A program made the translations under genes and the position numbers. A DNA stretch of 64,000 bases from Bacillota bacterium (GTDB lineage Bacteria > Bacillota > Clostridia > Peptostreptococcales > Anaerovoracaceae): positions 12,515 to 76,514 of the forward strand of contig JALERA010000045.1 of the NCBI GenBank assembly GCA_022764365.1, read 5' to 3'. How positions within the stretch are numbered: the stretch's first letter is position 1; each line of letters starts with the position of its first letter. Positions 4,733 to 55,520 of this stretch are shown piece after piece. The notes under the pieces are model-generated. The model ran no database searches and had not been told where the DNA came from. It was given only the letters and a program-made list of their open reading frames with translations.

Positions 4733-5707
4733 ATGAATGCAAAAGTTTTAAAAATAGGAAATGTTGAACTTGACAGTCCCTTCCTGCTTGCGCCCATGGC
4801 CGGAATTACCGATGGGCCGTTTCGCCGCATCTGCCGCGAAATGGGGGCAGGGCTTGTGTACTCCGAAATGGTGAGTGCAAAGGGGCTTTGGTTTAAAGAC
4901 AAAAATACAGGCAGGCTCCTCGAAATCTTAGATGGCGAGGAGCCTGTGGCGTACCAGCTTTTTGGGCATGAACCGGAAATCATGGCATTTGCGGCAGAGA
5001 CTCTGGCCGGCCGAGGCAATGTAATCTTTGACATTAATATGGGCTGCCCGGTGCCGAAGGTCGTAAAAAACGGGGAAGGCTCGGCCTTGATGAAGGATCC
5101 GCAGCTTGTTTTTGATCTCGTGGAAGCTGCGGTAAAAGGTGCCGGCAAGCCGGTGACGGTCAAAATCCGTGCAGGCTGGGACGAGGCTTCCGTCAATGCT
5201 GTGGAAATCGCACGCGCCGCCGCGGCGGGCGGAGCCGCCGCGGTCGCGGTCCACGCCCGGACGCGCGAACAGTTTTACAGCGGCCGGGCGGACCGCGCCG
5301 TCATCGCCGCCGTTAAGCATGCAGTATCAATCCCGGTCATCGGAAACGGCGACGTGACGGACGGCGCGTCCGGAATGAGCATGATGGATGAAACCGGATG
5401 CGATTTTGTCATGGTCGGACGCGGCGCACTCGGAAATCCGTGGATTTTCAGAGAACTGAATGCCGCATGGAAGGGTACTGAGCCGCCTGCTGCCCCGAGC
5501 ATGGAAGACAAGAAACAGATGATGATAAGGCATTTTCGCGACGTCCTTGCGCTGAAAGGCGAGTATGCGGCGGTTCGCGAGATGCGAAAGCATGTCGGCT
5601 GGTATCTGAAGGGCCTGCCGGGCTCGGCAGCTTTTCGCGGCATGGTAAATCAGATTACAAAGGCGCAGGAACTCGAAAGCGCCATAAGAAATCTTGGATG
5701 CAGATAG
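4733..5707 (+). CDS. dusB: tRNA-dihydrouridine synthase
   Basis: The product starts MNAKVLKIGNVELDSPFLLAPMAGITDGPFR and shows Dus FMN-binding motifs (NMGCPVPKV, VTVKIR, HARTR). ATG 4733 is preferred over the 4613 ORF start, which overlaps the pucR-family gene. Confidence 0.9.
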   Translation: MNAKVLKIGNVELDSPFLLAPMAGITDGPFRRICREMGAGLVYSEMVSAKGLWFKDKNTGRLLEILDGEEPVAYQLFGHEPEIMAFAAETLAGRGNVIFDINMGCPVPKVVKNGEGSALMKDPQLVFDLVEAAVKGAGKPVTVKIRAGWDEASVNAVEIARAAAAGGAAAVAVHARTREQFYSGRADRAVIAAVKHAVSIPVIGNGDVTDGASGMSMMDETGCDFVMVGRGALGNPWIFRELNAAWKGTEPPAAPSMEDKKQMMIRHFRDVLALKGEYAAVREMRKHVGWYLKGLPGSAAFRGMVNQITKAQELESAIRNLGCR

Positions 5708-10823: not shown

Positions 10824-11027
10824 GTCAGGAGGGAGAGGGGGACGATGGGGTACCAAAAAAGAGTACAAATTATACCATTGAAATTTCAACGGTTTGACGG
10901 ATTGTTTTTTTTGAGGAATGTCCGTCCGGACAAAAGATAAGCATATCCCGGTGCATATGGGCGGTCGATACACGAAACACCCCCTAAAAAAACCACTTTG
11001 GATGTTTTTGCTAATCCCGGCCGCCCT

Positions 11028-22564: not shown

Positions 22565-22600
22565 CGTGAGTTTTCCCAAACGGGAAATATAATGACATAA

Positions 22601-22715
22601 TCTGTTTCAGGGCGAGGTGAAATTCCTCACCGGCGGTATAGTCCGCGAACGCCGAGAGGCGCCGAGCAGGTGAAATTCCTGCACCGACGGTATAGTCCGG
22701 ATGAGAGAAACAAAG
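22601..22715 (+). promoter_or_regulatory. FMN riboswitch (RFN element)
   Basis: The sequence cagggcgaggtgaaattcctcaccggcggtatagtccgcgaacg...gcaggtgaaattcctgcaccgacggtatagtccggatgagagaaac matches the conserved RFN core (GGTGAAATTCC...CCGGCGGTA...CCGACGGTATAGTCCGGATG). It lies upstream of an ECF S-component gene. Confidence 0.85.
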
Positions 22716-22893
22716 GATTGCGCGATGCCTGCGTAATAGAATGACGGAGGCTTGGCGCGGAATTCGTATGTTGCTTTTTTGAGCCTTGATTCCCATCAAG
22801 GCTCTACTTGTGTAACCTGACAGATTTCCAACTACATCTTAGGGCGCCCGGACTTCAAAACGGGCAGATACAGAAAGAGAGGAAACTGTAGAA

Positions 22894-47041: not shown

Positions 47042-47124
47042 TGGTTCTTATGCAAATATTCGTCAATCATAAACAAGTAACAATGTAAAGCTGAAATACT
47101 CCCCAATTAGGGAGGAATCATTTC

Positions 47125-47312
47125 TTTCTGTCCTTTTGCCTGAGAGATTGGCGTATTCTTCGCCTTGCACCTTCGGCCCCCGCTTAAGCGGGCGTCTCCA
47201 GAACGCTATCCCTTTACAGTCCTCACCGCGCGAGGCATACCCGGTCGGGCAGGCCGTGCGGAACCTGAGAGTTTTACTCCTTCGGTAGGTTCAACCTTTT
47301 CCTGCAAAGTTC
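47125..47312 (-). promoter_or_regulatory. Tandem glycine riboswitch
   Basis: Read on the minus strand, aptamer 1 is gcaggaaaagg..cctaccgaaggagtaaaactctcagg..cctgc. Aptamer 2 is ttctggagacgcc..ggggccgaaggtgcaagg..aatctctcaggcaaaaggacagaa. Both carry the conserved ACCGAAGG.GCAA/CTCTCAGG core and lie upstream of an AGCS transporter. Confidence 0.8.
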
Positions 47313-47445: not shown

Positions 47446-48768
47446 TTAGGAGCGAATTTTTTTGTCATAGAGCACCAGTGCCAGCACAAGAGTACAGGTT
47501 TCCGAAGCGGCAGCAGCGGTCCAAACGCCGGTCTCGCCAAAGAAGAAAGAGAATATAAGGACGAAAACCGATGTAAAAATCAGCCCGCGCCCGACGGATA
47601 TGCTCATAGCCGACTTCGGCAGCTCTATAGACGTGAAATATCCCATCAGCGTAATCACTGCACCGAGAGGAAGAAACGCAGGGGAGTAGAGCCTGAATGC
47701 GTGAACGCTCTGCTCGAAAAGCTGCGGACTTGCCTCACTGTCAATGTATACGCCTACGATAGGGTCCGGATAAATCAGCCCGATTGCGAATGCGAGGAGC
47801 GAACATACGCCCGCGCAGCAAAGCGCAATCTTAAAAATGTAACGGCAGAAAGATCTTTTTTCCTTGCCGTAGTAATAGCTGATGAGCGGCTGCGTGCCTT
47901 GGTTTATGCCCATCATGGTCATAAGCACCAGCTGCGCAAAGTAGGAAATAATCGTATAAATCACAACTCCGTCGTTTCCCGAAATGCTCAGAAGCACGCG
48001 GTTGAAGACGAAAATGCAGATTCCCACGGAAAGCTCCGTCATGCAGTCGGCAATGCCAAATTTCGTACGGCAGAATGCCTCTTTGAGCTCGCCGCCACTG
48101 ATTCTGACAAAGGAAAATTCCGATTTTGTCGAAAGGAAATGTTTCACATAAATGCTGAAGGACATCAGCTGCGACAGCCCCGTCGCGATTGCTGCGCCCG
48201 CAATTCCCCACCGGAACACGAGTACAAACAGTGCGTCCAGCACGATATTGCAGCATGCCGCCGCAACGCATGTTTTGATGGCTGTCTGCGGAAACCCGTC
48301 CGCCTTGACCAAAACTTCCAAATTGTAGGATGTCATATAAAAAGGAATAAATGCTGTGATTATTCCAAGATACTGCTTCACATAGTCAATCGTCTCATCC
48401 GTTGCACCCAGAAAAAGCGCAACCTTATCAAGAAAAAGCAGGATAACTGCGGCGACTGCAAGCCCGACCAACGCAACGGCAATCACGCTGCCGGTAAAAA
48501 CTTTGTTCGCGCCGCTGCGCTCGCCCCGGCCTTTGCATACGGAAGCGCGCGTGCTTGCTCCGACTGCAAACAGGATTCCCAGTGCGAATGCCGCATTGAC
48601 AACCGGCATCGCAAGATTTACTGCCGCCAGTGCATCCTCGCCCACGCCGCGCGCTACGAAGATACCGTCTACCATCGTATAGATGGTATAGACCCACATT
48701 GCGGCAACGGAAGGCATAACATAATGGAAGAATTTCGATTTGATGTAAATTTTGTTTGAATTTGTCAT
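47446..48768 (-). CDS. MATE-family efflux transporter
   Basis: There are 12 predicted TM helices, and the N-terminus FFHYVMPSVAAMWVYTIYTMVDGIFVARGVGEDALAAVNLAMP is MATE-typical. ATG 48768 follows the RBS GAGGTGA; the ORF-track extension to 48933 runs into GC-rich noncoding DNA. Confidence 0.9.
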   Translation of the reverse strand: MTNSNKIYIKSKFFHYVMPSVAAMWVYTIYTMVDGIFVARGVGEDALAAVNLAMPVVNAAFALGILFAVGASTRASVCKGRGERSGANKVFTGSVIAVALVGLAVAAVILLFLDKVALFLGATDETIDYVKQYLGIITAFIPFYMTSYNLEVLVKADGFPQTAIKTCVAAACCNIVLDALFVLVFRWGIAGAAIATGLSQLMSFSIYVKHFLSTKSEFSFVRISGGELKEAFCRTKFGIADCMTELSVGICIFVFNRVLLSISGNDGVVIYTIISYFAQLVLMTMMGINQGTQPLISYYYGKEKRSFCRYIFKIALCCAGVCSLLAFAIGLIYPDPIVGVYIDSEASPQLFEQSVHAFRLYSPAFLPLGAVITLMGYFTSIELPKSAMSISVGRGLIFTSVFVLIFSFFFGETGVWTAAAASETCTLVLALVLYDKKIRS

Positions 48769-48787
48769 TGTTATCACCTCTGTAAAC

Positions 48788-48818
48788 AGCATAAACCCTG
48801 GTATCATACCAAGGTCAA
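48788..48818 (-). promoter_or_regulatory. MerR-type promoter (19-bp spacer containing a palindrome) for the MATE gene
   Basis: On the minus strand, TTGACC is followed by the 19-nt spacer ttggtatgataccagggtt and then TATGCT. The imperfect palindrome CCTTGGTAT-g-ATACCAGGG spans the -35 element and the spacer. Confidence 0.6.
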
Positions 48819-48883
48819 GAGTGATTTTGAAAAATTTTTTTGCCACCGGTCTCCCCGGTGCCGCCGCCCGGTGCGGCCGGGGG

Positions 48884-48988
48884 CGCCGGCGTTTGGGAAA
48901 CCTTGGCGTTTGGGACCTCGGGGACGCCGGCATTCCGGGAAACCTCGGCGTTTGGAGCCTCGGTGACGCCTGCGTCTGGGAAACCTCT
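48884..48988. repeat. GC-rich tandem repeat, 42-bp unit (two alternating 21-mers), about 2.5 copies
   Basis: ggcgtttgggacctcggggacgccggcattccgggaaacctc is followed by ggcgtttggagcctcggtgacgcctgcgtctgggaaacctc, with a leading partial unit. Confidence 0.85.
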
Positions 48989-49770
48989 GAGGAGAGATAG
49001 CGTTTACACGAAACATGCCCTTATAGAGGGGTGCTTCGTGTCTTTGAGGCCATAAATCGCCCCGAAGCGTCCCGGGCACGCATAGCGGCATAAGCGCCCG
49101 CTGAGGACCCCCTCTCAAAACGGTGAAATTTCAACAACCCAATAAATTCCATTTTGAATGCCGCCGGAGAACCAACCCTGCCGTGCGCAAAATTCACCTA
49201 AAATGGGCAAAAGACACGAAAAGGGGGTCAATTTTCGGCAGTTGGTGGGAAATGCCTAATTCTTACAGAAATGTAAAATGTCCGGTGTGCTGAGTCGAGC
49301 ATGCTGCATGCCTTGGGCGCGCACCCAAGCGCACGCCTCCGAAAACTAACCCAAACGCACGGCAGCAGTCCTCGATGTCTCGTCCCTGTCCCGGATGTGC
49401 ACCCTAAGCCCCGCACGCTTTCGCCCCAGGATTTCAGAACCTTCGGCGTTTGGAAGCATGGCGTGCCGTCCGGCCCCCTGCGCGCCTCCGCCCGAGGGGC
49501 GGGGCGCCTGGAATCCCTTGAACTCGCGAACCTCCGCCCTTGAGCCGCCGAGCCCCGACGACCCAGGGGCTCGCCGCGTACTTAATTCCCGAAGATACTT
49601 TTTAAAAATGAAAATGTATGATATGCTTATAGCAGAGACGAACGCGTTCCGGCGATGCGGAAACGAAAGTGTGCTGGCTGACGATGGTACCGGCACCCCC
49701 AGAGTGTGCGATTGGACGCACCTCGACGGTGACCGGTGCGCCCCGCGCGGGCATGCGAAAGGAGGAGATG

Positions 49771-50577
49771 ATGAAGGAATATTACAAGATAGGCGAAATT
49801 TCAAAACTTTACAATATCGGTACGGATTCGCTCCGCTACTACGAAGAAATCGGCATACTGCGGCCGCGGCGCGACGAAAACGGCTACCGCATGTACAGCG
49901 TCGGCGACATCCGAACCCTGAACGTTCTGCGCGAACTCCGCAGCATCGGCTTCCCGATGAAAGACATCAAAGCACACCTCAAGGACTTCGACGTGCAGCA
50001 AACGCTAGACATGTTCGCCGAGGCCATCGAAAGAATCGACCGGCGGCAGGAAGAACTCGAATTGCTCAAGAAAAATGTTTCCGAACGCATCGACGAGATC
50101 AATTACTATTTACGCGAAAAAAACACACACGAGAGCATTTCCGTGCAGTCGCTGCCCGAACGCCACATCCTCAAACTCAGCGAAAAAGCGCTACGTGAGA
50201 CCGACATCGATTTCGTCCTCAAGAAACTGCAGTCAGAGTACGAGGACCAGCTTTACATCGTAGGAAACGGTGAAATCGGAGCGCTGATTGACAGCGACTG
50301 CCTGCTCGAGGGTGAATACGGGCGCTTCGAAGCAGCCTTCTACATCGTAGCGCCCGACGAAGAGTTCGACGCCGTGCTTCCCGCCGCAGACTATCTTTGC
50401 ATGACGGTCAAAGGTTCTTATGCACAAATGCGCGAGGAGTGGAGCAAGATTTTGGACTATGCGCGACGGGAAGGGTTCAGCGTCTGCGGCAGCGGCGTCG
50501 AACTCTACCTTATCGACGACCACGACACAAACAAGGAGAGCGAATTCATCACCGAACTGCAGATTGCAGTTCGGTGA
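49771..50577 (+). CDS. MerR-family transcriptional regulator with a GyrI-like effector-binding domain (BmrR type)
   Basis: MKEYYKIGEISKLYNIGTDSLRYYEEIGILRPRRDENGYRMYS is the MerR HTH. The C-terminal 150 aa are GyrI-like. The RBS is AAGGAGG, and 49768 is an alternative start. Confidence 0.85.
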   Translation: MKEYYKIGEISKLYNIGTDSLRYYEEIGILRPRRDENGYRMYSVGDIRTLNVLRELRSIGFPMKDIKAHLKDFDVQQTLDMFAEAIERIDRRQEELELLKKNVSERIDEINYYLREKNTHESISVQSLPERHILKLSEKALRETDIDFVLKKLQSEYEDQLYIVGNGEIGALIDSDCLLEGEYGRFEAAFYIVAPDEEFDAVLPAADYLCMTVKGSYAQMREEWSKILDYARREGFSVCGSGVELYLIDDHDTNKESEFITELQIAVR

Positions 50578-50640
50578 TGAAGAGGCGGCAGCAGGCACGG
50601 CCGCGTCCCGGACTAAACACCCTGCGGCCGCCTGTGCCGC

Positions 50641-50718
50641 CAGGCGGCTCGGCGGCATGCGCAGCATCTCGACACTGCAGGCGGCTCGGCGGCATGCGCA
50701 GCATCTCGACACTGCAGG
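50641..50718. repeat. Perfect 37-bp tandem duplication
   Basis: caggcggctcggcggcatgcgcagcatctcgacactg occurs twice (50641-50677 and 50678-50714), followed by the first 4 nt of a third unit. Confidence 0.95.
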
Positions 50719-50780
50719 AACTTCGCAGGGGCGGGGGCAGAGATGCCAGACCTTTCCGGGCGGCAGTCAGGGATGCGGCA

Positions 50781-50921
50781 CCTTCCTGGAGGGCGAATTC
50801 TTCTTCATCTTGGGCGGAGGCGTTGCGCCTTCCTGGAAGGCGAATTCCTCTTCATCTCGGGCGGGAGCGTTGCATCTTCTTGGAGGTCGAATTCTTTTTC
50901 ATTTCGGGCGGGAGTGAAATG
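50781..50921. repeat. 47-bp tandem repeat, 3 progressively diverged copies
   Basis: The units start at 50781, 50828 and 50875 (ccttcctggagggcgaattcttcttcatcttgggcggaggcgttgcg and variants). The unit length is not a multiple of 3. Confidence 0.9.
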
Positions 50922-51300
50922 TCAAAAAATGGATAATCATGCATAAAGTAATATCTTTTTAGCCAAAGCGCCTCAAAAATAGAAACCGGCAGCCTGCAGA
51001 AACTCCAAAAACAGCAAAAAAGCCTCAGAACAGGCTGCTGTCGCAGACCCGCCCGGCAGGTGCCGCCCGGCAGGCCGTCGAGCCATATAAAAATTTCGAC
51101 GTTATAAGCTGTTCGCATCCGAGAAAACGAAAAAAAGGATGTGCATGCGGCAAATGCGAACTCTTGGTTCAGCCGGGGACGGAAGCTCGATTTTCTATCT
51201 TTTCGGTCCGATGCCCCAAAAGATAGAAAAATCGACCATTTTATGCATGCCCGGCGCCCACACCCGCCACCTGGCTGCCCCGGCGCACGCCCCACGCCTA
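50915..51300. repeat. Noncoding module, copy 1 (A box 50915-50994, B box 51194-51300)
   Basis: The A box shares the exact blocks ggataatcatgcataaagtaatatcttttt and aaaaatagaaaccggcagcc with copy 2. The B box shares the hairpin tctatctttt-N14-aaaagataga plus attttatgca and ccggcgcacgc. Confidence 0.85.
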
Positions 51301-51305
51301 GGGGG

Positions 51306-52136
51306 CTACATCTGCGGGAGCAGTATACCGGCAATTATGCGGCCGACCTCCTCAGAATCAAAGCCGCCGTCCGGGCCGTCGCATGTTACAATTAAGTTTT
51401 TAGGCTGATAGATGCCGTTCAAATAATACAGCTGCATTTTTTCCCGGTCACGCAAGAAGTACACATCATCGCCGAACATACCTTTATGCTCCCAATACAG
51501 AATTTTCCCGTTCGCAAGATAGATCGTAAAATCCGGATAAACTGTCATGAGCCTGCCGTGGCGATCATGCAAAACCAAGGCTTTTTCGTACACGAATTCA
51601 ATCCCCGCAGAAAAAAAGCTTTCGGCAAGCATCAACTCACCCTTCGAGCGTACGAGAAGACCGAACGAGGTTTTGTGAATGAGATTTTCACGCATGTATG
51701 GATTCTCGGACTGCCGAATCCAAGGCTTGACACCCTTCGGAGTATGGCTGCCTTTTTTGCGAATCCGCCCTTCGTAAGGCATGCGCTCATCGAAATGAAA
51801 TTGATAAGCCTTGGGCAGCGACGCATTTACCGCTGCAAAATCTGCGGGACGATACGCCGCCAAAAATTTTTCCTGCAGTACGATGTTCGACTTCAGACGA
51901 TTCTCCGTTTCCGCCACAAAACGCGCCACCTTCATATCGTTAACAATGTTTAAATCTTCCTTTTTTACATACCTAAGCGCAGCGTCGTTTTTGTACTTGC
52001 GCGCATAGAAAAGACGATTGCCTTTTTTCTGGCAAACAAGACGCCCGTCAGGCTTGGAAACATTTAGCGCTTTAATCTTTGCAAGCATTTGTTTCTCAAA
52101 ATCCAAATTCGCGCTTATACTATTCAAAAAGCTCAT
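51306..52136 (-). CDS. Orphan PD-(D/E)xK nuclease-fold protein (TnsA endonuclease N-terminal-like core)
   Basis: The C-terminal half SKGELMLAESFFSAGIEFVYEKAL...VYPDFTIYLANGKILYWEHKG gives the E...PD...ExK pattern. ATG 52136 follows the RBS AGGGAGG. The N-terminal 150 aa are unrecognised. Confidence 0.6.
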   Translation of the reverse strand: MSFLNSISANLDFEKQMLAKIKALNVSKPDGRLVCQKKGNRLFYARKYKNDAALRYVKKEDLNIVNDMKVARFVAETENRLKSNIVLQEKFLAAYRPADFAAVNASLPKAYQFHFDERMPYEGRIRKKGSHTPKGVKPWIRQSENPYMRENLIHKTSFGLLVRSKGELMLAESFFSAGIEFVYEKALVLHDRHGRLMTVYPDFTIYLANGKILYWEHKGMFGDDVYFLRDREKMQLYYLNGIYQPKNLIVTCDGPDGGFDSEEVGRIIAGILLPQM

Positions 52137-52162
52137 GCAGCATACCTCCCTTTGTACTACAA

Positions 52163-52191
52163 ATAATACCATAAAAGGATTTAAATGTAAA
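52163..52191 (-). promoter_or_regulatory. Putative extended -10 promoter of the PD-(D/E)xK gene
   Basis: On the minus strand, TTTACA is followed by a 17-nt spacer ending in TGg, then TATTAT. Confidence 0.5.
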
Positions 52192-52202
52192 TACCCTCCA
52201 GC

Positions 52203-52560
52203 TGAAAAATGTAAAAAAAAGGATAATCATGCATAAAGTAATATCTTTTTGGACAAAGGGCCTCAAAAATAGAAACCGGCAGCCCCGCAATGGGCTTCCG
52301 GCATATAAAAAAAGCATAATCCCGCGCCGCAGGAATATGCGTAAAAACCACTCAAAAACCAAAACGTTGAAATTCCAACGGTTTACAATTGTACAATTTC
52401 TTTTGTAATTTGACCCAAATTCCTTTTGCGAGTCAAAACCGCAAGGGGGGCGTCTATCTTTTCGGCTCAAACGGTAAAAAGATAGAAAAAACCGACATTT
52501 TATGCACGGGCAGCCGACACACGCGCGGCCCAAACAGCACACCGGCGCACGCTAGCGGCC
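52203..52560. repeat. Noncoding module, copy 2 (A box 52203-52284, B box 52453-52560)
   Basis: This is a direct-orientation duplicate of 50915-51300 with internal indels. The B end overlaps the stop codon and last codons of the TRIC-channel gene. Confidence 0.85.
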
Positions 52561-53184
52561 GCCGCCGCGGCTGCCGGGTTTTGGCAGGCTCCACCTGTAA
52601 TGCGAAGCGAGCAGGCGGATCAGAACGATGAGAACCGCGCCCGAAAGCATCGCGACATAGCCGTTGGTGTAAGGCATGAGGATGCAAAACAGCAGGGCGC
52701 CTGCGATAGAGGCGGTCGCGTAGATGTGGCGTACGAATATATATGGCATGTCGCCTGCCATCACATCGCGGAGAAGACCGCCGCCGACCCCTGTGATGAC
52801 ACCGACAAAGACGGCGAGAAATACGGTCGGATTCTCGGAAACCTCAAAGGCGCGCATAGCACCGGAAACGGTGAAAATACCAAGGCCGATTGAGTCGGCA
52901 AGCAGCATAACACGGCTGCTGCGTTCGAGAAGGTCGCGAACCTGTGGGATGAACACGATGAGACATGTGAGAAATGCCGTCAGTGCGTAAATCGGATTTT
53001 GAAACATTGCCGGCGGGAACGCACCGAGGATGATGTCTCGGATGATACCGCCGCCGACCGCCACGGTAAGCGCAAGTACGAATGCGCCGAAAATATCCAT
53101 GTTTTTTCTGATTCCTGTCATTGCGCCGGAAACCGCAAACGCGGCGGCTCCGATAAGCTCCAATACTAAAATGAAAATATCCAT
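52552..53184 (-). CDS. Trimeric intracellular cation channel (TRIC/UPF0126, YadS-like) family membrane protein
   Basis: The repeated glycine motif appears as AAAFAVSGAMTGIRKNMDIFG...VGGGIIRDIILG and FTVSGAMRAF...VGGGLLRDVMAG. ATG 53184 follows the RBS AAAGGTGG. Confidence 0.85.
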   Translation of the reverse strand: MDIFILVLELIGAAAFAVSGAMTGIRKNMDIFGAFVLALTVAVGGGIIRDIILGAFPPAMFQNPIYALTAFLTCLIVFIPQVRDLLERSSRVMLLADSIGLGIFTVSGAMRAFEVSENPTVFLAVFVGVITGVGGGLLRDVMAGDMPYIFVRHIYATASIAGALLFCILMPYTNGYVAMLSGAVLIVLIRLLASHYRWSLPKPGSRGGGR

Positions 53185-53235
53185 ATATCCACCTTTGTCA
53201 TTTTTTGTCGTTATGTGAATTGTACCGCCGAAACG

Positions 53236-53269
53236 ACGCAAAGTCAACGCAAAGTCAACGCAAAAGTCA
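53236..53269. repeat. Three tandem 11/12-bp direct repeats (ACGCAAAGTCA) abutting a -35 box
   Basis: acgcaaagtca acgcaaagtca acgcaaaagtca is followed 2 nt later by TTGAAA. Confidence 0.85.
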
Positions 53270-53271
53270 AA

Positions 53272-53300
53272 TTGAAAATGCAGCGCGGGGATGATATAAT
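53272..53300 (+). promoter_or_regulatory. Sigma-A promoter of the GNAT gene
   Basis: TTGAAA, a 17-nt spacer, then TATAAT. Confidence 0.55.
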
Positions 53301-53358
53301 GTAGGAAACGTGAGCGGAAGCAAAAGCGCGCAGAAGAGCGGCCGCGGGGAGGAACGAC

Positions 53359-53991
53359 ATGGACAATAAGAACAACGTCAACAACAAGACGATAGAAACA
53401 GAACGCTTAATAATCAGACCGTCGAGATGGGAAGACCTCGATACCTTTTATGAGTGGGAGCTTTTGCCTGAGGTTACGAAGTTTTTCAGTATTCGTGACA
53501 ACCAGAGCAAGGAAGATGTCATCCGCAAATATGTGGCGGACAGCGATGATCCGAAGGCACGGCAGTTTACCGTCTGCCTCAAGGCCGGGGCAGAGGCAGC
53601 AGACATGCCGGGCGCACAGGGCACACAGGGCGCGCCGAGCATGCCGGAATCCAGCGAGAAGATGATTGGCAGAATCGTGCTTGCGGACATCGAGGACGAG
53701 TGGAAGGCCGAAATCTGGAGAATTTACATTGCGGACACGGCACTCAGAGGCAGGGGTCTTGGCAGGGAAGCCATGCTTGCCATGATGAAATACTGCTTCG
53801 AAGATCTCAAACTGAAGAGACTTTACCTCGACCACTACACGGGAAATCCGGCTTCGTTCTTGTATCAAAGCCTCGGGTTCAAGTATGAAGGCGTGCTGAG
53901 AGACAACTGCCGCAAGAACGGCAAACTCTACGACGTGCACCTCATGTCAATGCTGGCATCCGAATATGCAGAACTTTACGGAAATAAGTAA
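53359..53991 (+). CDS. GNAT-family N-acetyltransferase (RimJ/RimL-like) with a low-complexity insert
   Basis: It has TERLIIRPSRWEDLDTFYEW and a GNAT core (RGRGLGREAMLAMMKYCFE). The insert is GAEAADMPGAQGTQGAPSMPESS. Confidence 0.85.
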   Translation: MDNKNNVNNKTIETERLIIRPSRWEDLDTFYEWELLPEVTKFFSIRDNQSKEDVIRKYVADSDDPKARQFTVCLKAGAEAADMPGAQGTQGAPSMPESSEKMIGRIVLADIEDEWKAEIWRIYIADTALRGRGLGREAMLAMMKYCFEDLKLKRLYLDHYTGNPASFLYQSLGFKYEGVLRDNCRKNGKLYDVHLMSMLASEYAELYGNK

Positions 53992-54106
53992 TTGTGGCAA
54001 ATAACAAAAAAATAAAAAAAAATAATGAAAAAACACAAAAAAGGGGTTGACATCCTTTTTTTTCTGTGCTAAACTGCGTATATCAGTTAAGGAAAGGAGA
54101 AAAACG

Positions 54107-54253
54107 ATGAACTACATGGCACTCATTATCAGCATTATACTTATCAGCATTATTTTACTGGTCCTCGTCATTATGAGCATCAGAATGAATAGTGATATTT
54201 GCATTGCGGGTAATGAAGCAAGTTCAATCGAATTTGCCAGAGCGGATATTTAG
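54107..54253 (+). CDS. Mini-ORF (48 aa), extremely Ile/Leu/Val-rich: candidate leader peptide or small hydrophobic membrane peptide
   Basis: The RBS GGAAAGGAG is followed 7 nt later by ATG. The product is MNYMALIISIILISIILLVLVIMSIRMNSDICIAGNEASSIEFARADI. A TTGACA / TGcTAAACT promoter lies upstream and a hairpin with a T-run lies downstream. Confidence 0.4.
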   Translation: MNYMALIISIILISIILLVLVIMSIRMNSDICIAGNEASSIEFARADI

Positions 54254-54293
54254 CTCAGGCATGAATCCGAAACTTAAGTTGAAACATAACTTT

Positions 54294-54329
54294 AACCTGC
54301 AGGCATTGGTCGGCAGGTTTTTTATTTTC
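54294..54329 (+). terminator. Hairpin plus T-run between the mini-ORF and the second liv operon
   Basis: aacctgc-aggcattggtcg-gcaggtt is followed by ttttttatttt. The livJ2 RBS begins 3 nt later. Confidence 0.55.
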
Positions 54330-54344
54330 AAAGGAGGAATTGAA

Positions 54345-55520
54345 ATGAACATGAAAAAATTTATGAAGAAATTCGCGGCTGTATCGATGGCAGTCGTAAT
54401 GACAGTGGCTTTTGCAGGATGCGGAAATGATTCCGGAACAAATACCGGAGACGGCGCAGCAAAATTCGTAATCGGCGGCATCGGACCGACAACCGGCGAC
54501 GCAGCAGTATACGGACAGGGCGTTAAGAACGCAGCCGAAATGGCAGTGGAAGAAATCAACGCTAACGGCGGAATCAACGGATATCAGGTTGAATTCCTTT
54601 GGCAGGATGACGTTCACGACACAGAAAAAGCCGTAAACGCATACAACTCATTAAAAGACCAAGGCATGCAGATGTTAATGGGTACGGTTACTTCCGCACC
54701 ATGCACAGCAGTCGTTGCTCTTACAGAAGAAGACAATATGTTCCAGCTTACACCGTCAGGTTCGGCTGTTGAATCCATCAAAGGCGACAACGCATTCAGA
54801 GTTTGCTTCTCCGACCCGAACCAAGGTGTAGGTTCTGCAGACTACTTCGCAGAAAACTTCCCGAATGCTAAGGTTGGCGTAGTTTACAACTCATCCGACG
54901 TATATTCCAACGGCATCTTCAAGACATTCAAGAAAGAAGCTGCAGCCAAGGGTGTAAACGTTGTTGCAACAGAAGCATTCACAAAGGATTCCGCACAGGA
55001 CTTCACAGTACAGATCCAGAAGATGAAAGAATCCGGCGCTGACTTAGTATTCCTTCCGTTCTACGCACAGGAAGCATCCTTGTTCTTAACACAGGCAGAC
55101 AAAGCAGGTCTTGACGCACAGTTCTTCGGATGCGACGGTCTTGACGGATTAATCAAACAGCTTGGAAGCAACGCACAGCTTGCAGAAGGCGTAATGCTGT
55201 TAACTCCATATGCAGCTGACTCCGATAATGAAGCATCCAAGAAGTTCACAGAAGCTTATGAAGCAAAATATGACGGCGAAGTTCCGACACAGTTCGCAGC
55301 AGACGCTTATGATGCAATGTACATCATCAAGAAAGCAGCAGAAACAGCAGGCGTAACTCCTGATATGAGCGTTTCCGACATCTGCGACGCAATGAAGAAA
55401 GCTATGACAGAAATCGAATTCACAGGTGCAACCGGCACAATGACATGGTCTGCAGACGGTGAACCTACCAAGACGCCGATGGCTATGGTAATCAAAAACG
55501 GCGAATACAAATCACTGTAA
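54345..55520 (+). CDS. livJ: LivJ-family substrate-binding lipoprotein (operon 2)
   Basis: It has a lipobox (VAFAGCGNDSG) and FVIGGIGPTTGDAAVYG. The RBS is AAAGGAGG. Confidence 0.9.
   Translation: MNMKKFMKKFAAVSMAVVMTVAFAGCGNDSGTNTGDGAAKFVIGGIGPTTGDAAVYGQGVKNAAEMAVEEINANGGINGYQVEFLWQDDVHDTEKAVNAYNSLKDQGMQMLMGTVTSAPCTAVVALTEEDNMFQLTPSGSAVESIKGDNAFRVCFSDPNQGVGSADYFAENFPNAKVGVVYNSSDVYSNGIFKTFKKEAAAKGVNVVATEAFTKDSAQDFTVQIQKMKESGADLVFLPFYAQEASLFLTQADKAGLDAQFFGCDGLDGLIKQLGSNAQLAEGVMLLTPYAADSDNEASKKFTEAYEAKYDGEVPTQFAADAYDAMYIIKKAAETAGVTPDMSVSDICDAMKKAMTEIEFTGATGTMTWSADGEPTKTPMAMVIKNGEYKSL

Follow-up and report, generated by a model that had tools for sequence, protein, structure and literature searches.

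RAYT/REPIN systems are characterized by tens to hundreds of dispersed repeats per genome, with REPs occurring approximately every 5-10 kb. In integrons, an IntI tyrosine recombinase lies close to attI and Pc, the attC sites are 57-141 bp long and consist of R''-L''/L'-R' arms with a GTTRRRY core at the cassette boundary, and the cassettes are promoterless ORFs in arrays. The REPs themselves are tagged by GTAG or CGTC (PMC3733652). In the window, that is, the whole 64-kb stretch of DNA analyzed here, two noncoding copies of a module, at 52207-52508 and 50917-51249 and both on the minus strand, bracket the gene for a nuclease of the PD-(D/E)xK type.

Nuclease gene and protein family

The nuclease gene (51306-52136, minus strand) encodes a protein of 276 aa. 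The N-terminal part consists of a helix, a beta-hairpin, and a long helix, and the C-terminal part is a PD-(D/E)xK-type domain in which the catalytic-type residues E167, D202, and E216-H-K218 are conserved and motifs of the RSK-x-E type, PDF, and E-x-K are present. The top Foldseek match of the predicted model (mean pLDDT 88.6) is TnsA (1t0f, 1f1z), a weak match with E-values of 0.07-0.19 and a TM-score of ∼0.24. Homology to the C-terminal nuclease domain of PDC-S68 covers residues 140-271 (E 1.9e-28), and full-length PDC-S68 proteins of ∼1220 aa contain AAA_30 and UvrD_C_2 domains; the match to PDC-S69 is marginal (E 0.0024). One PDC-S68 gene adjoins DISARM on Bacillus cereus plasmids. Searches of Pfam, NCBIfam, PHROGs, and PDB sequences with the nuclease yielded nothing usable, including no transposase match, and a search of phages and plasmids matched only the C-terminal domains of large helicase-nucleases. 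A profile search at E < 1e-30 recovered 906 clusters at 50% identity. Judged by its sequence, the nuclease is a member of a large, unnamed family of ∼270-aa PD-(D/E)xK nucleases. A MOB_C-type (PD-(D/E)xK) relaxase with its oriT was considered, but there is no plasmid similarity at E < 1e-3 and no transfer genes lie nearby.

A promoter-like site of the nuclease gene, predicted only, lies at 52163-52191 on the minus strand (TTTACA, 17 nt, TG-TATTAT; 10/12 matches plus the TG extension), outside the repeated module, and is conserved in the sister species. The genes within ∼5-6 kb on either side encode TRIC, GNAT, ABC transporter, MerR, MatE, and Na/Ala symporter proteins, with no tyrosine or serine recombinase, integrase, or transposase in this interval.

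Anatomy and boundaries of the modules

The original prediction of a duplicated noncoding module on either side of the nuclease gene was borne out, and its claims about the sequence hold. The window contains the 30-mer GGATAATCATGCATAAAGTAATATCTTTTT exactly two times (50931 and 52221), with no match in shuffles, and the 20-mer is contained in a 23-mer, CTCAAAAATAGAAACCGGCAGCC, found in the window solely at 50972 and 52262. The A boxes are similar over 78 nt at 94% identity (50917-50994 vs 52207-52284). The B hairpin, TCTATCTTTT-N14-AAAAGATAGA, is present at 51194-51227 and 52453-52486 with unlike loops and is followed in both copies by attttatgca and ccggcgcacgc, the latter block next to the stop codons at 51306 and 52552. 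An element in the middle block, TTGAAATTYCAAC, is intact in the upstream copy, while the downstream copy has a 33-nt deletion there. The extents first drawn, 50915-51300 and 52203-52560, were too wide; the boundaries used here were set from the start and stop of similarity to the sister species and to a solo copy with identical ends.

The modules are 302-333 bp long in the window and up to 376 bp in relatives (∼300-375 bp overall). The module ends are inverted repeats, TGCATAAAATG ... CTTTATGCA, in which CATGCATAAA... pairs with ...TTTATGCATG. The A box and B box are mutually inverted repeats, so every module has terminal inverted repeats (TIRs), a feature overlooked in the original prediction. 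Immediately internal to each end is a hairpin, and the center is a GTTGAAATTYCAAC palindrome; a terminator-like hairpin is also internal. The outer limits are TGCATAAAATG on one side, unchanged in 8/8 aligned copies, and GACATTT on the other. While the ends are conserved, the middles of ∼200 nt are only ∼46-50% alike between the two copies, which argues for the ends of an element and against a duplicated promoter region.

On the gene strand, the upstream module (52207-52508, minus strand; copy 2 of the original prediction) reads TIR tag, H1, central palindrome, terminator-like hairpin, H2, TIR tag, and ATTATCC-T8-ACATTT. Its left terminal tag, GTGCATAAAATG (52497-52508, minus strand), is the inverted partner of CTTTATGCATG at 52228-52238. 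Hairpin H1 is the B-box hairpin at 52453-52486, with arms TCTATCTTTT and AAAAGATAGA around a 14-nt loop. The central palindrome, GTTGAAATTCCAAC, lies at 52366-52379 with an A run and a T run on its sides. The terminator-like hairpin, TCCTGCGGCGCGGGA followed by a T run, lies at 52310-52334 on the minus strand; its counterpart in the sister species is a 13/14-bp stem at the equivalent position (L009, 5795-5825). The A box (52207-52284, minus strand) contains a degenerate H2 (TCTATTTTTG..CAAAAAGATA), the right tag CTTTATGCATG, and ATTATCC..ACATTT, and abuts the promoter-like site of the nuclease gene.

The downstream module (50917-51249, minus strand; copy 1 of the original prediction) has the same layout, with 33 nt of the central palindrome deleted in this strain relative to relatives. 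Its H1 occupies 51191-51230 (16-nt arms, 94% complementary, 8 nt between them), and its A box 50917-50994 on the minus strand. A terminator-like hairpin, AGCCTGTTCTGAGGCT followed by a T run (51021-51036, minus strand), was detected by consensus scan only and, from its sequence, is probably the end of the nuclease transcript. G+C-rich linkers on the minus strand separate the modules from the adjacent stop codons: 52509-52551 from the TRIC stop codon to the upstream module, and 51250-51305 from the nuclease stop codon to the downstream module. The former shares GCGTGCGCCGG with 51281-51291 and is not conserved at the upstream copy of the sister species.

Tandem repeats adjoin the downstream module (37 nt x 2.1 at 50641-50718; 47 nt x 2.9 at 50778-50914). 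They are missing from the sister species, their copy number differs among strains, and they may or may not be part of the element. G+C-rich tandem repeats are likewise found beside the module of a 64%-identical homologue. Sequence searches revealed no further module copy in the other 62 kb of the window. Palindromes resembling GTTGAAATTTCAAC are present at two further intergenic sites of the window, so this motif may belong to a host factor. A Xer/dif-like site at the TGCATAAA end was considered and rejected, the second arm being absent as judged by eye.

Conservation among strains and the solo module

The module-gene-module unit is kept in the sister species despite a different left neighbor, iPGM instead of TRIC, and similarity between the species begins exactly at TGCATAAAATG and stops at GACATTT. 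Within the species, the unit is retained in 8/8 long contigs with no excised or empty allele, and the presence/absence polymorphism of the gene segment that was sought among strains was not found. Identical nuclease proteins are always in identical gene context, and nuclease paralogues occupy orthologous positions in the sister species. In this constant context, in the eight contigs, and at these orthologous sites, there is no sign of recent mobility.

A further copy with both module boundaries unchanged was found at a locus unrelated to this one, where it is flanked by tRNA-Ser on one side and an ECF sigma/serpin operon on the other. This solo module is known from nine metagenome stretches that represent one locus, the sole extra site found, and is antisense to both neighboring genes. 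Its identity is 86-88% with the full-length downstream modules of L019 and of the sister species, and ∼80% overall with the downstream module of the window, from which 33 nt are deleted. Within ∼4 kb on either side, no gene for the nuclease was detected; a 276-aa ORF beside the solo module was considered as a nuclease copy and proved unrelated to the nuclease. Neither an empty site nor a target duplication was found at the nuclease locus (via MerR orthologues) or at the solo locus (via the sigma-factor neighbor), the flanks of the next relatives being non-syntenic at both. No module was found in viral contigs.

The upstream and downstream A boxes are 93-96% alike within a genome and 88-89% between species, which points to gene conversion (concerted evolution), while the B box and the middle lack this within-genome excess of likeness. 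Short-read contigs break inside the A box; exact repeats of this kind break short-read assemblies, hence the ∼1.1-1.5 kb contigs of many family members.

One explanation is a local duplication of a regulatory or terminator flank, comprising insulating terminators and operator palindromes, that was copied once, with neither mobility nor nuclease action. Such a duplication would account for a terminator-like hairpin on the gene strand in each module, also seen in the homologous locus L031, for the stability of the unit within the species and between sister species, for the A box abutting the promoter-like site, and for the operator-like TTGAAAT palindrome, which is found elsewhere in the window too. 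However, the solo copy has its two boundaries unchanged at an unrelated locus, the ends are conserved around middles that are ∼48% alike, and the layout occurs in at least six lineages with different modules, twice inverted and once with 100% identity. We regard a single local duplication as unlikely.

The original prediction had compared the locus, as an analogy, to cassette arrays or to a gene captured between recombination sites. In a reading of this kind, an integron-like or att-site cassette would hold a gene captured by a site-specific recombinase acting in trans. There are direct repeats around one gene, each with a folded imperfect palindrome, and recombination of A box with A box could give a 1.29-kb circle. 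The analogy did not survive closer comparison: there is one gene rather than an array, it has its own promoter-like site, and the modules are 300-375 bp units with TGCATAAA-type inverted ends that exceed the 57-141 bp of attC and lack GTTRRRY cores at their boundaries. The excised allele is absent in the eight contigs, no tyrosine or serine recombinase is encoded within ∼5-6 kb on either side, and two lineages have inverted module pairs, which att-site recombination cannot produce. The cassette reading is already largely refuted and its remaining likelihood is very small. What stands of the original interpretation is that the repeat is more than a one-off local duplication: by the refutation test set out in the original prediction, a copy elsewhere counts against such a duplication, and the solo module at its unrelated locus is such a copy.

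Recurrence across the nuclease family

Distant homologues (37-64% aa identity) have modules of their own, either homologous or lineage-specific, located upstream only or on both sides of the gene. The arrangement of a gene between modules is seen again well beyond the window, and the hairpin is conserved across species and in the 64%-identical homologue. Direct module pairs are present in L027 (264 bp, 90% identity, perfect 25-nt TIRs), L035, and L054, and inverted pairs in L031 (221 bp, 100% identity) and L089. Flank repeats occur in only 6/28 comparable loci, corresponding to five independent lineages as L019 shares the arrangement of the window; L089 is one more such locus beyond these six. 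Only one module accompanies the gene of the 64% homologue, 425 nt upstream of it, with TIRs of ∼34 nt and the CTATCTTTTT hairpin as in the window, and the TIRs in L027 and L065 are 25-34 nt long.

The association extends to motifs and hairpins near the family genes. Repeated hairpin families within 600 nt of the gene comprise 28 hairpins in 12/31 loci, compared with two hairpins in 1/31 loci in distant DNA, which was 4.4x more extensive. TGCATAA was observed 27 times near family genes (4.9 expected), and the palindrome core TTGAAAT 46 times (6.3 expected), occurring within 450 nt of the gene at 24/32 family loci. GCATAAR followed by a hairpin is ∼6.7x denser near genes than in DNA distant from them. 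In a genome with three paralogues, the flanking hairpin sequences are all different, and paralogues within one genome are only 39-49% identical. Sequence comparison across the family demonstrates that the hairpin arms are lineage-specific and that the modules co-diverge with the gene family.

This co-divergence bears on another explanation, in which the module is a MITE of the usual kind, mobilized in trans by a conventional transposase encoded at another site, and the nuclease gene is a passenger between copies, as in a composite transposon. The TIRs, the MITE-like size, and the solo copy are what such an element would show, and PD-(D/E)xK proteins are not known to transpose alone; in Tn7, TnsA needs TnsB. 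Yet the modules of the 37-64% homologues are homologous or of like design but diverged, which indicates that they diverged with the gene. A pattern scan of metagenome contigs found the module solo or beside this nuclease gene and never bounding a transposase gene, and at this locus the ∼5-6 kb to each side are free of transposase genes. A conventional MITE with a passenger gene is quite improbable.

The modules could instead act as RNA, that is, as 3' UTRs or small RNAs that regulate, inhibit, or guide the nuclease, comparable with type III toxin-antitoxin repeats or guide-RNA scaffolds. The folding of the module beats that of shuffles (z -3.3 and -4.5, obtained with DNA parameters), the variable inner stem of the L035 hairpins shows compensatory changes, and the terminator-like hairpins on the gene strand inside the modules would make the B hairpins part of the 3' UTRs in the mRNAs of TRIC and the nuclease. 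The H1 stem of the window type is invariant in all ten copies seen, with variable loops, and so gives no signal either way on covariation. Several observations run against a role as RNA: modules are found facing either way with respect to the gene, the solo copy runs antisense to its two neighbors, and the predicted promoter comes after the upstream module rather than before it. G.T wobble had at first, in a count by eye, suggested a sense-strand signal, an idea that was dropped when a scripted count of mismatches in repeated hairpins gave 10 G.T vs 9 A.C, with no strand bias. An Rfam E-value search of 48500-54500 found no matching family, and a gathering-threshold search of the whole window detected only FMN and glycine riboswitches, both elsewhere. 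A function as RNA is, on balance, quite improbable as well.

Proposed mode of action

The explanation we favor, to which we assign about an even chance, is that the module is a discrete noncoding cis partner of the nuclease gene, and that module, promoter, gene, and module form a complete low-copy unit that is selfish or domesticated. The module itself has TGCATAAA-tagged TIRs, subterminal hairpins, a AAAAYGTTGAAATTYCAACRTTTT-type palindrome, and the internal terminator-like hairpin, and it also stands alone in the manner of a MITE or REPIN. The action of the nuclease on the module is suggested only by their linkage and co-divergence. Counting against this explanation are the lack of any sign of recent mobility, of further copies in the window, and of an empty site or target duplication, the small share of comparable loci with flank repeats, the single module of the 64% homologue, the palindromes resembling GTTGAAATTTCAAC elsewhere in the window, and the weakness of the TnsA match. 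The nuclease, probably a dimer joined through its N-terminal long helix, would recognize tagged hairpins or palindromes in the modules that belong to it and make its cuts at these sites. With the second copy as template, repair of the break would hold the A boxes of one genome similar, and a module might now and then be copied, flipped, deleted, or moved. Shielding of the nuclease gene from outside transcription may be a further effect of the internal terminators.

A more ambitious and decidedly tentative reading is that the unit represents a new class of prokaryotic selfish element, whose sole enzyme is a TnsA/Hjc-like PD-(D/E)xK nuclease acting on the 'tagged hairpins' (GCATAAA plus a stem-loop) of its own modules. 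Such an element would rely for its spread or maintenance on breaks made by the nuclease and on copy-repair, with no transposase involved, and might be a PD-(D/E)xK counterpart of RAYT/REPIN and IS200/IS605. The co-diverging DNA partner gives an unnamed nuclease family a concrete candidate substrate. Should the modules indeed be what the nuclease acts on, the system would be the first of the hairpin-repeat kind to be driven solely by a PD-(D/E)xK enzyme, and the enzyme would offer cleavage specific for both sequence and structure, at a natural site that differs from lineage to lineage.

Comparison with known systems

TnsA of Tn7 is the best structural match, though a weak one (E 0.07, TM ∼0.24), and shares motifs of the RSK-x-E, PDF, and E-x-K type; however, there are no adjacent tnsB or tnsC genes here and the N-terminal domain is unlike that of TnsA. 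PDC-S68, a PADLOC candidate defence gene, shares the nuclease domain over residues 140-271, whereas its RecD-like helicase part is missing here and the neighbors are housekeeping genes rather than a defence island.

Among systems that pair a gene with folded repeats, integrons likewise have a gene followed by a folded imperfect palindrome, and direct repeats lie on both sides of the gene here, but the IntI integrase, the attC architecture, and the array are absent and the gene has its own promoter-like site. ToxIN-like type III toxin-antitoxin systems have tandem RNA repeats and a terminator immediately ahead of the gene for a ToxN-fold endoribonuclease; the repeats here are non-tandem, on both sides of the gene, and in either orientation, and the protein fold is another one.

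IS200/IS605 elements are similar in being small units (∼1.3-1.9 kb) with one enzyme gene and subterminal hairpins beside short conserved sequences. In contrast with the inverted repeats at the ends here, those elements lack TIRs; their HUH transposase, an enzyme of another class, acts on single strands, and their copies are near-identical while the within-genome paralogues here are 39-49% identical. An insertion sequence with its MITE shares the TIRs, the size of a few hundred bp, the solo noncoding copy, and the bracketing of a gene by copies, but a DDE or other known transposase is absent here, and the sole protein linked to the repeats is a nuclease, for which the analogy with TnsA predicts cutting rather than joining of DNA.

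RAYT/REPIN systems also feature a single-copy, vertically inherited gene of nuclease type among its own family-specific palindromic repeats. The repeat is likewise a short conserved tag beside a hairpin, the tag here being GCATAAA; paralogues in one genome each have their own type of repeat, and repeats also occur away from the gene. In contrast with the HUH/Y1 transposase of RAYT (TnpA_REP), the enzyme here is a PD-(D/E)xK protein; the repeat is a 300-375 bp composite with TIRs rather than a REP of 20-40 nt, and copy number is very low, with no further copy in the remaining 62 kb of the window. By analogy, the locus is best read as a nuclease paired with its own tagged-hairpin repeat, resembling RAYT/REPIN, or an insertion sequence with its MITE, but with an enzyme of another class.

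Organization of the locus

The natural reading direction of the region is the minus strand. On this strand, the TRIC/Gly_transporter gene (53184-52552; PF03458, E 2e-44) is followed by the upstream noncoding module (52207-52508), a putative promoter-like site of the form TTTACA - 17 nt - TG-TATTAT (52191-52163), the 276-aa ORF of the nuclease (52136-51306), and the downstream noncoding module (50917-51249). A convergent MerR/GyrI-like gene (49771-50577) faces the unit with its 3' end. Between this gene and the downstream module lie two G+C-rich tandem repeats, one of 37 nt x 2.1 with 100% identity (50641-50718) and one of 47 nt x 2.9 with 84% identity (50778-50914), both of which are missing from the sister species. 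The number of 47-nt units differs between strains (two in L092, three in most), and the single module of a 64% nuclease homologue is also bordered by G+C-rich tandem repeats (L065 3140-3200, 3590-3720). The final codons and stop of the MerR/GyrI-like gene lie within a perfect inverted repeat (17-bp arms, 3-nt loop; TTCATCACCGAACTGCA atc TGCAGTTCGGTGATGAA; 50545-50581), which is kept in the sister species (L009 7340-7372). The window also contains a glycine riboswitch upstream of the Na/Ala symporter gene (47118-47211, minus strand) and an FMN riboswitch (22599-22716, plus strand), and has no tRNA genes.

Anatomy of the modules

The original prediction described a cassette-like duplication around a PD-(D/E)xK gene, and all of its sequence claims were reproduced. 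The exact 30-mer and a 23-mer containing the predicted 20-mer each occur twice in 64 kb, which no shuffle equalled; the A box, one conserved end of the module, is duplicated over 78 nt at 94% identity; and the hairpin of the B box, the other conserved end, is present twice as TCTATCTTTT-N14-AAAAGATAGA with differing loops. A feature overlooked there is that the A and B boxes are partial inverted repeats of each other (CATGCATAAA... / ...TTTATGCATG), so that each copy has terminal inverted repeats (TIRs) with a hairpin just internal to each. In alignments of the window with the sister species, similarity of the upstream copy begins precisely at GTGCATAAAATG and that of both copies ends at ...ATTATCC(A/T)TTTTTT(G/T)ACATTT, which sets the units at 52207-52508 and 50917-51249.

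On the gene strand, the module consists of a tag, TGCATAAAATG; the hairpin H1; a variable middle, in which lie a GTTGAAATTYCAAC palindrome and a terminator-like hairpin followed by a T run; H2, a second and degenerate hairpin; the inverted tag CTTTATGCA; and a short A/T-rich tail. It is noncoding, as 1-nt indels separate the species. The downstream module of the window is missing, at 51096-51110, 33 nt that are present in the sister species (L009 7036-7078), in the related locus L019 and in a solo copy (L076), where they build a palindrome with a 16-bp stem, GAAATTCCAATGATTC ccc GAATCATTGGAATTTC. The modules place terminator-like hairpins to either side of a potentially toxic gene, which would suit a purely regulatory or insulating role; such a role is nevertheless unlikely. 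Single-strand folding of the module is better than that of shuffled sequence (z -3.3 and -4.5), and an Rfam search matched no family. Action at the RNA level is quite improbable, and a strand-bias test of hairpin mismatches (10 G.T vs 9 A.C) lent it no support.

The nuclease and its family

Sequence searches of Pfam, NCBIfam, and PDB with the 276-aa protein gave no match. The family alignment reveals the invariant or near-invariant motifs QSENPY, TSFGLxVRSKxE, YPDFTI, WEH(K)G, and NGIYxPxNLIVTxDG, which by sequence amount to a predicted PD-(D/E)xK-type signature in the C-terminal half. AlphaFold models the protein confidently, with a mean pLDDT of 88.6, as an N-terminal helix, a beta-hairpin, a 36-residue helix, and then an alpha/beta nuclease domain; the top structural matches of the model, Tn7 TnsA chains, are weak (E 0.07). 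Alignment shows clear homology (E 1.9e-28) of residues 140-271 with the C-terminal end of PDC-S68, a helicase-nuclease of ~1220 aa that PADLOC lists as a candidate defence gene. On Bacillus cereus plasmids, a PDC-S68-type helicase-nuclease with the common nuclease domain is flanked by a site-specific integrase gene on one side and drmA of DISARM on the other (L059 665-4420).

The full-length family is large and unnamed: a profile search at E < 1e-30 found 906 cluster representatives (clusters of 50% identity), and those members that can be identified derive from gut and rumen MAGs of the class Clostridia. One metagenome allele matches the window protein at 86% identity over residues 1-134 and at 96% over 136-277 (L083 11161-11562 and L071 3-428, one contig), a mosaic that suggests recombination between diverged alleles.

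Conservation in the sister species

All identical-protein contigs (L001-L008) share the arrangement of the window. In the sister species (L009-L018), the nuclease is 91% identical and the right-hand neighbours MerR, MatE, and Na/Ala symporter are unchanged, with iPGM and AddA on the left in place of TRIC. Both modules are kept despite this different left side, at 78-81% identity. Within one genome, the upstream and downstream A boxes are 93% (window) or 96% (sister species) identical, whereas A boxes of the same copy type are only 88-89% identical between species. In the B box and the middle, identity depends on the copy type (98% and 83% between downstream copies, 80% and 81% between upstream copies, 73-80% and ~48% between the two types). 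From these comparisons, the module ends are conserved, drift is left to the middle, and in each genome the A box is homogenised. The A-box pattern is read as probable gene conversion centred on this box; selection by a co-evolving binding protein predicts the same pattern.

In some sister-species strains, the terminator hairpin within the upstream module is swapped for a different hairpin, GGGGCTGTGCCCTAACG...CGTTAATGCGACAGCCCC, and a closely similar hairpin is found upstream of another nuclease paralogue (L078 1-60, L082 6396-6450, L026 165-215, L028 1-22). The two contigs join in reverse complement at this hairpin, representing an inserted element or an assembly artefact.

A solo module beside a tRNA gene

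A further copy of the module elsewhere was found by scanning metagenome contigs with the B-end pattern: among 17 stretches, some are the known unit and nine represent one other locus. This solo module of ~370 bp has tRNA-Ser(CGA) and its terminator on one side and an ECF-sigma/serpin operon on the other, and no nuclease homologue was detected in the ~4 kb searched on either side. It aligns over its full length with the downstream-type module, with both boundaries exactly identical, at 86-88% identity to the copies of L019 and the sister species and ~80% to that of the window, which carries the 33-nt deletion. Three assemblies (ODHN01, OIWT01, ERZ780149) contain both solo module and full unit, as would be expected if the two belonged to one genome. 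Some strains lose all similarity partway through the tRNA-homologous segment, past ...CGCATTTCGAGT (L076 3750-3838 vs L081, L077); the partly kept tRNA sequence would fit an island integrated at that tRNA-Ser gene.

Modules around distant homologues

Paralogues and their context were compared across 39 genome loci. Two or three nuclease paralogues per MAG are common, with a mutual identity of only 39-49%, and they occupy orthologous positions in sister species (L023 with L024, L026 with L028), which argues that the genes are old and vertically inherited rather than recently transposed.

The same module design recurs with other sequences at distant homologues. L027 harbors a 264-bp direct module pair, 90% identical, with perfect 25-nt TIRs containing CGTGCATAAG; the ORF of its nuclease, a 39% homologue, ends within the downstream-module TIR (4785-4826), the stop TAA lying in CGTGAATAAG where the upstream copy has CGTGCATAAG. 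The homologous pair of L031 is inverted, with 221 bp at 100% identity, as is the pair of L089, with outer ends GCATAAAGACTACTCTTTTG. L035 and L054 carry hairpin arrays, with four hairpins upstream of the gene and three downstream; the L035 hairpins share a constant outer stem and differ in the inner one, with compensation on both arms (TTTTGCT/AGCAAAA vs TTTCACT/AGTGAAA). The closest outside homologue (L065, 64%), surrounded by phage-like genes, has one upstream module only, with ~34-nt TIRs and the hairpin CTATCTTTTT at each end, as in the window modules.

The association of module and gene family holds up quantitatively. Within 600 nt of the gene, 12 of 31 loci together hold 28 hairpins of repeated families, against 2, in one locus, in the 4.4-fold larger stretch beyond 1 kb. 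For TGCATAA, 27 copies lie within 450 nt of the gene (4.9 expected from composition), and GCATAAR with a hairpin at most 14 nt on is ~6.7x denser near nuclease genes than far off. TTGAAAT, with the consensus AAAAYGTTGAAATTTCAACRTTTT, occurs 46 times (6.3 expected); it is present at 24 of 32 loci and flanks the gene on both sides in ~11. The window has three GTTGAAATTTCAAC-type palindromes against 0.38 expected. Because near-perfect copies lie at two other intergenic sites (10877-10890 and 49122-49135, one between divergent MatE and MerR genes), the TTGAAAT palindrome may be the site of a host factor or regulator rather than of the nuclease.

Mobility of the unit

The presence/absence polymorphism considered for the gene segment was not seen: both modules and the nuclease gene are present in all eight long TRIC-bearing contigs, and two shorter contigs break off within the A box, where the exact repeat interrupts the assembly. 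Outside the two sister species, the nearest MerR orthologues are bordered on that side by other genes and lack the unit: one orthologue, of 78% identity, has an unrelated gene 130 nt away, and another, of 60%, an MjaI-type restriction-modification pair. Downstream of the MerR orthologue of a more distant relative lie an MjaI-type restriction enzyme and an N6/N4 methyltransferase (L062 5928-7839), which marks this side of the gene as a variable spot gathering accessory genes. A clean empty site was found neither for the unit next to the closest MerR orthologues nor for the solo module upstream of its sigma-factor orthologues, where the module is likewise absent, and no module was found in viral contigs or in the remaining 62 kb of the window. 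No recombinase lies within ~5-6 kb on either side of the unit; that an unrelated transposase mobilises the modules is distinctly unlikely.

Interpretation and comparison with known systems

A one-off segmental duplication is ruled out by the data. The original interpretation stands in that the unit is real, recurring, and structured, with a copy elsewhere; as a cassette system it does not. An integron-like cassette is a misfit, given the absence of a recombinase within ~5-6 kb on either side, the lack of attC architecture, the predicted promoter of the gene's own, and inverted pairs in two lineages. What fits the observations is a nuclease gene paired with a cognate DNA element that is rich in hairpins, bounded by TIRs, and also found alone. 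The nuclease itself would recognise and cut the modules, and break repair could explain why A boxes are homogenised, why one inverted pair is 100% identical, and how the solo copy arose. The system is rated as an enzyme gene with cognate hairpin repeats, with a modest chance that a PD-(D/E)xK nuclease alone drives it, as a new class of element. The closest known logic is that of RAYT/REPIN, with vertically inherited enzyme genes that are bordered by a tagged palindrome and with a repeat specific to each paralogue; an insertion sequence with its MITE is the other close analogue of nuclease and module. Unlike in both, the enzyme here is of a different class and the copy number is very low.
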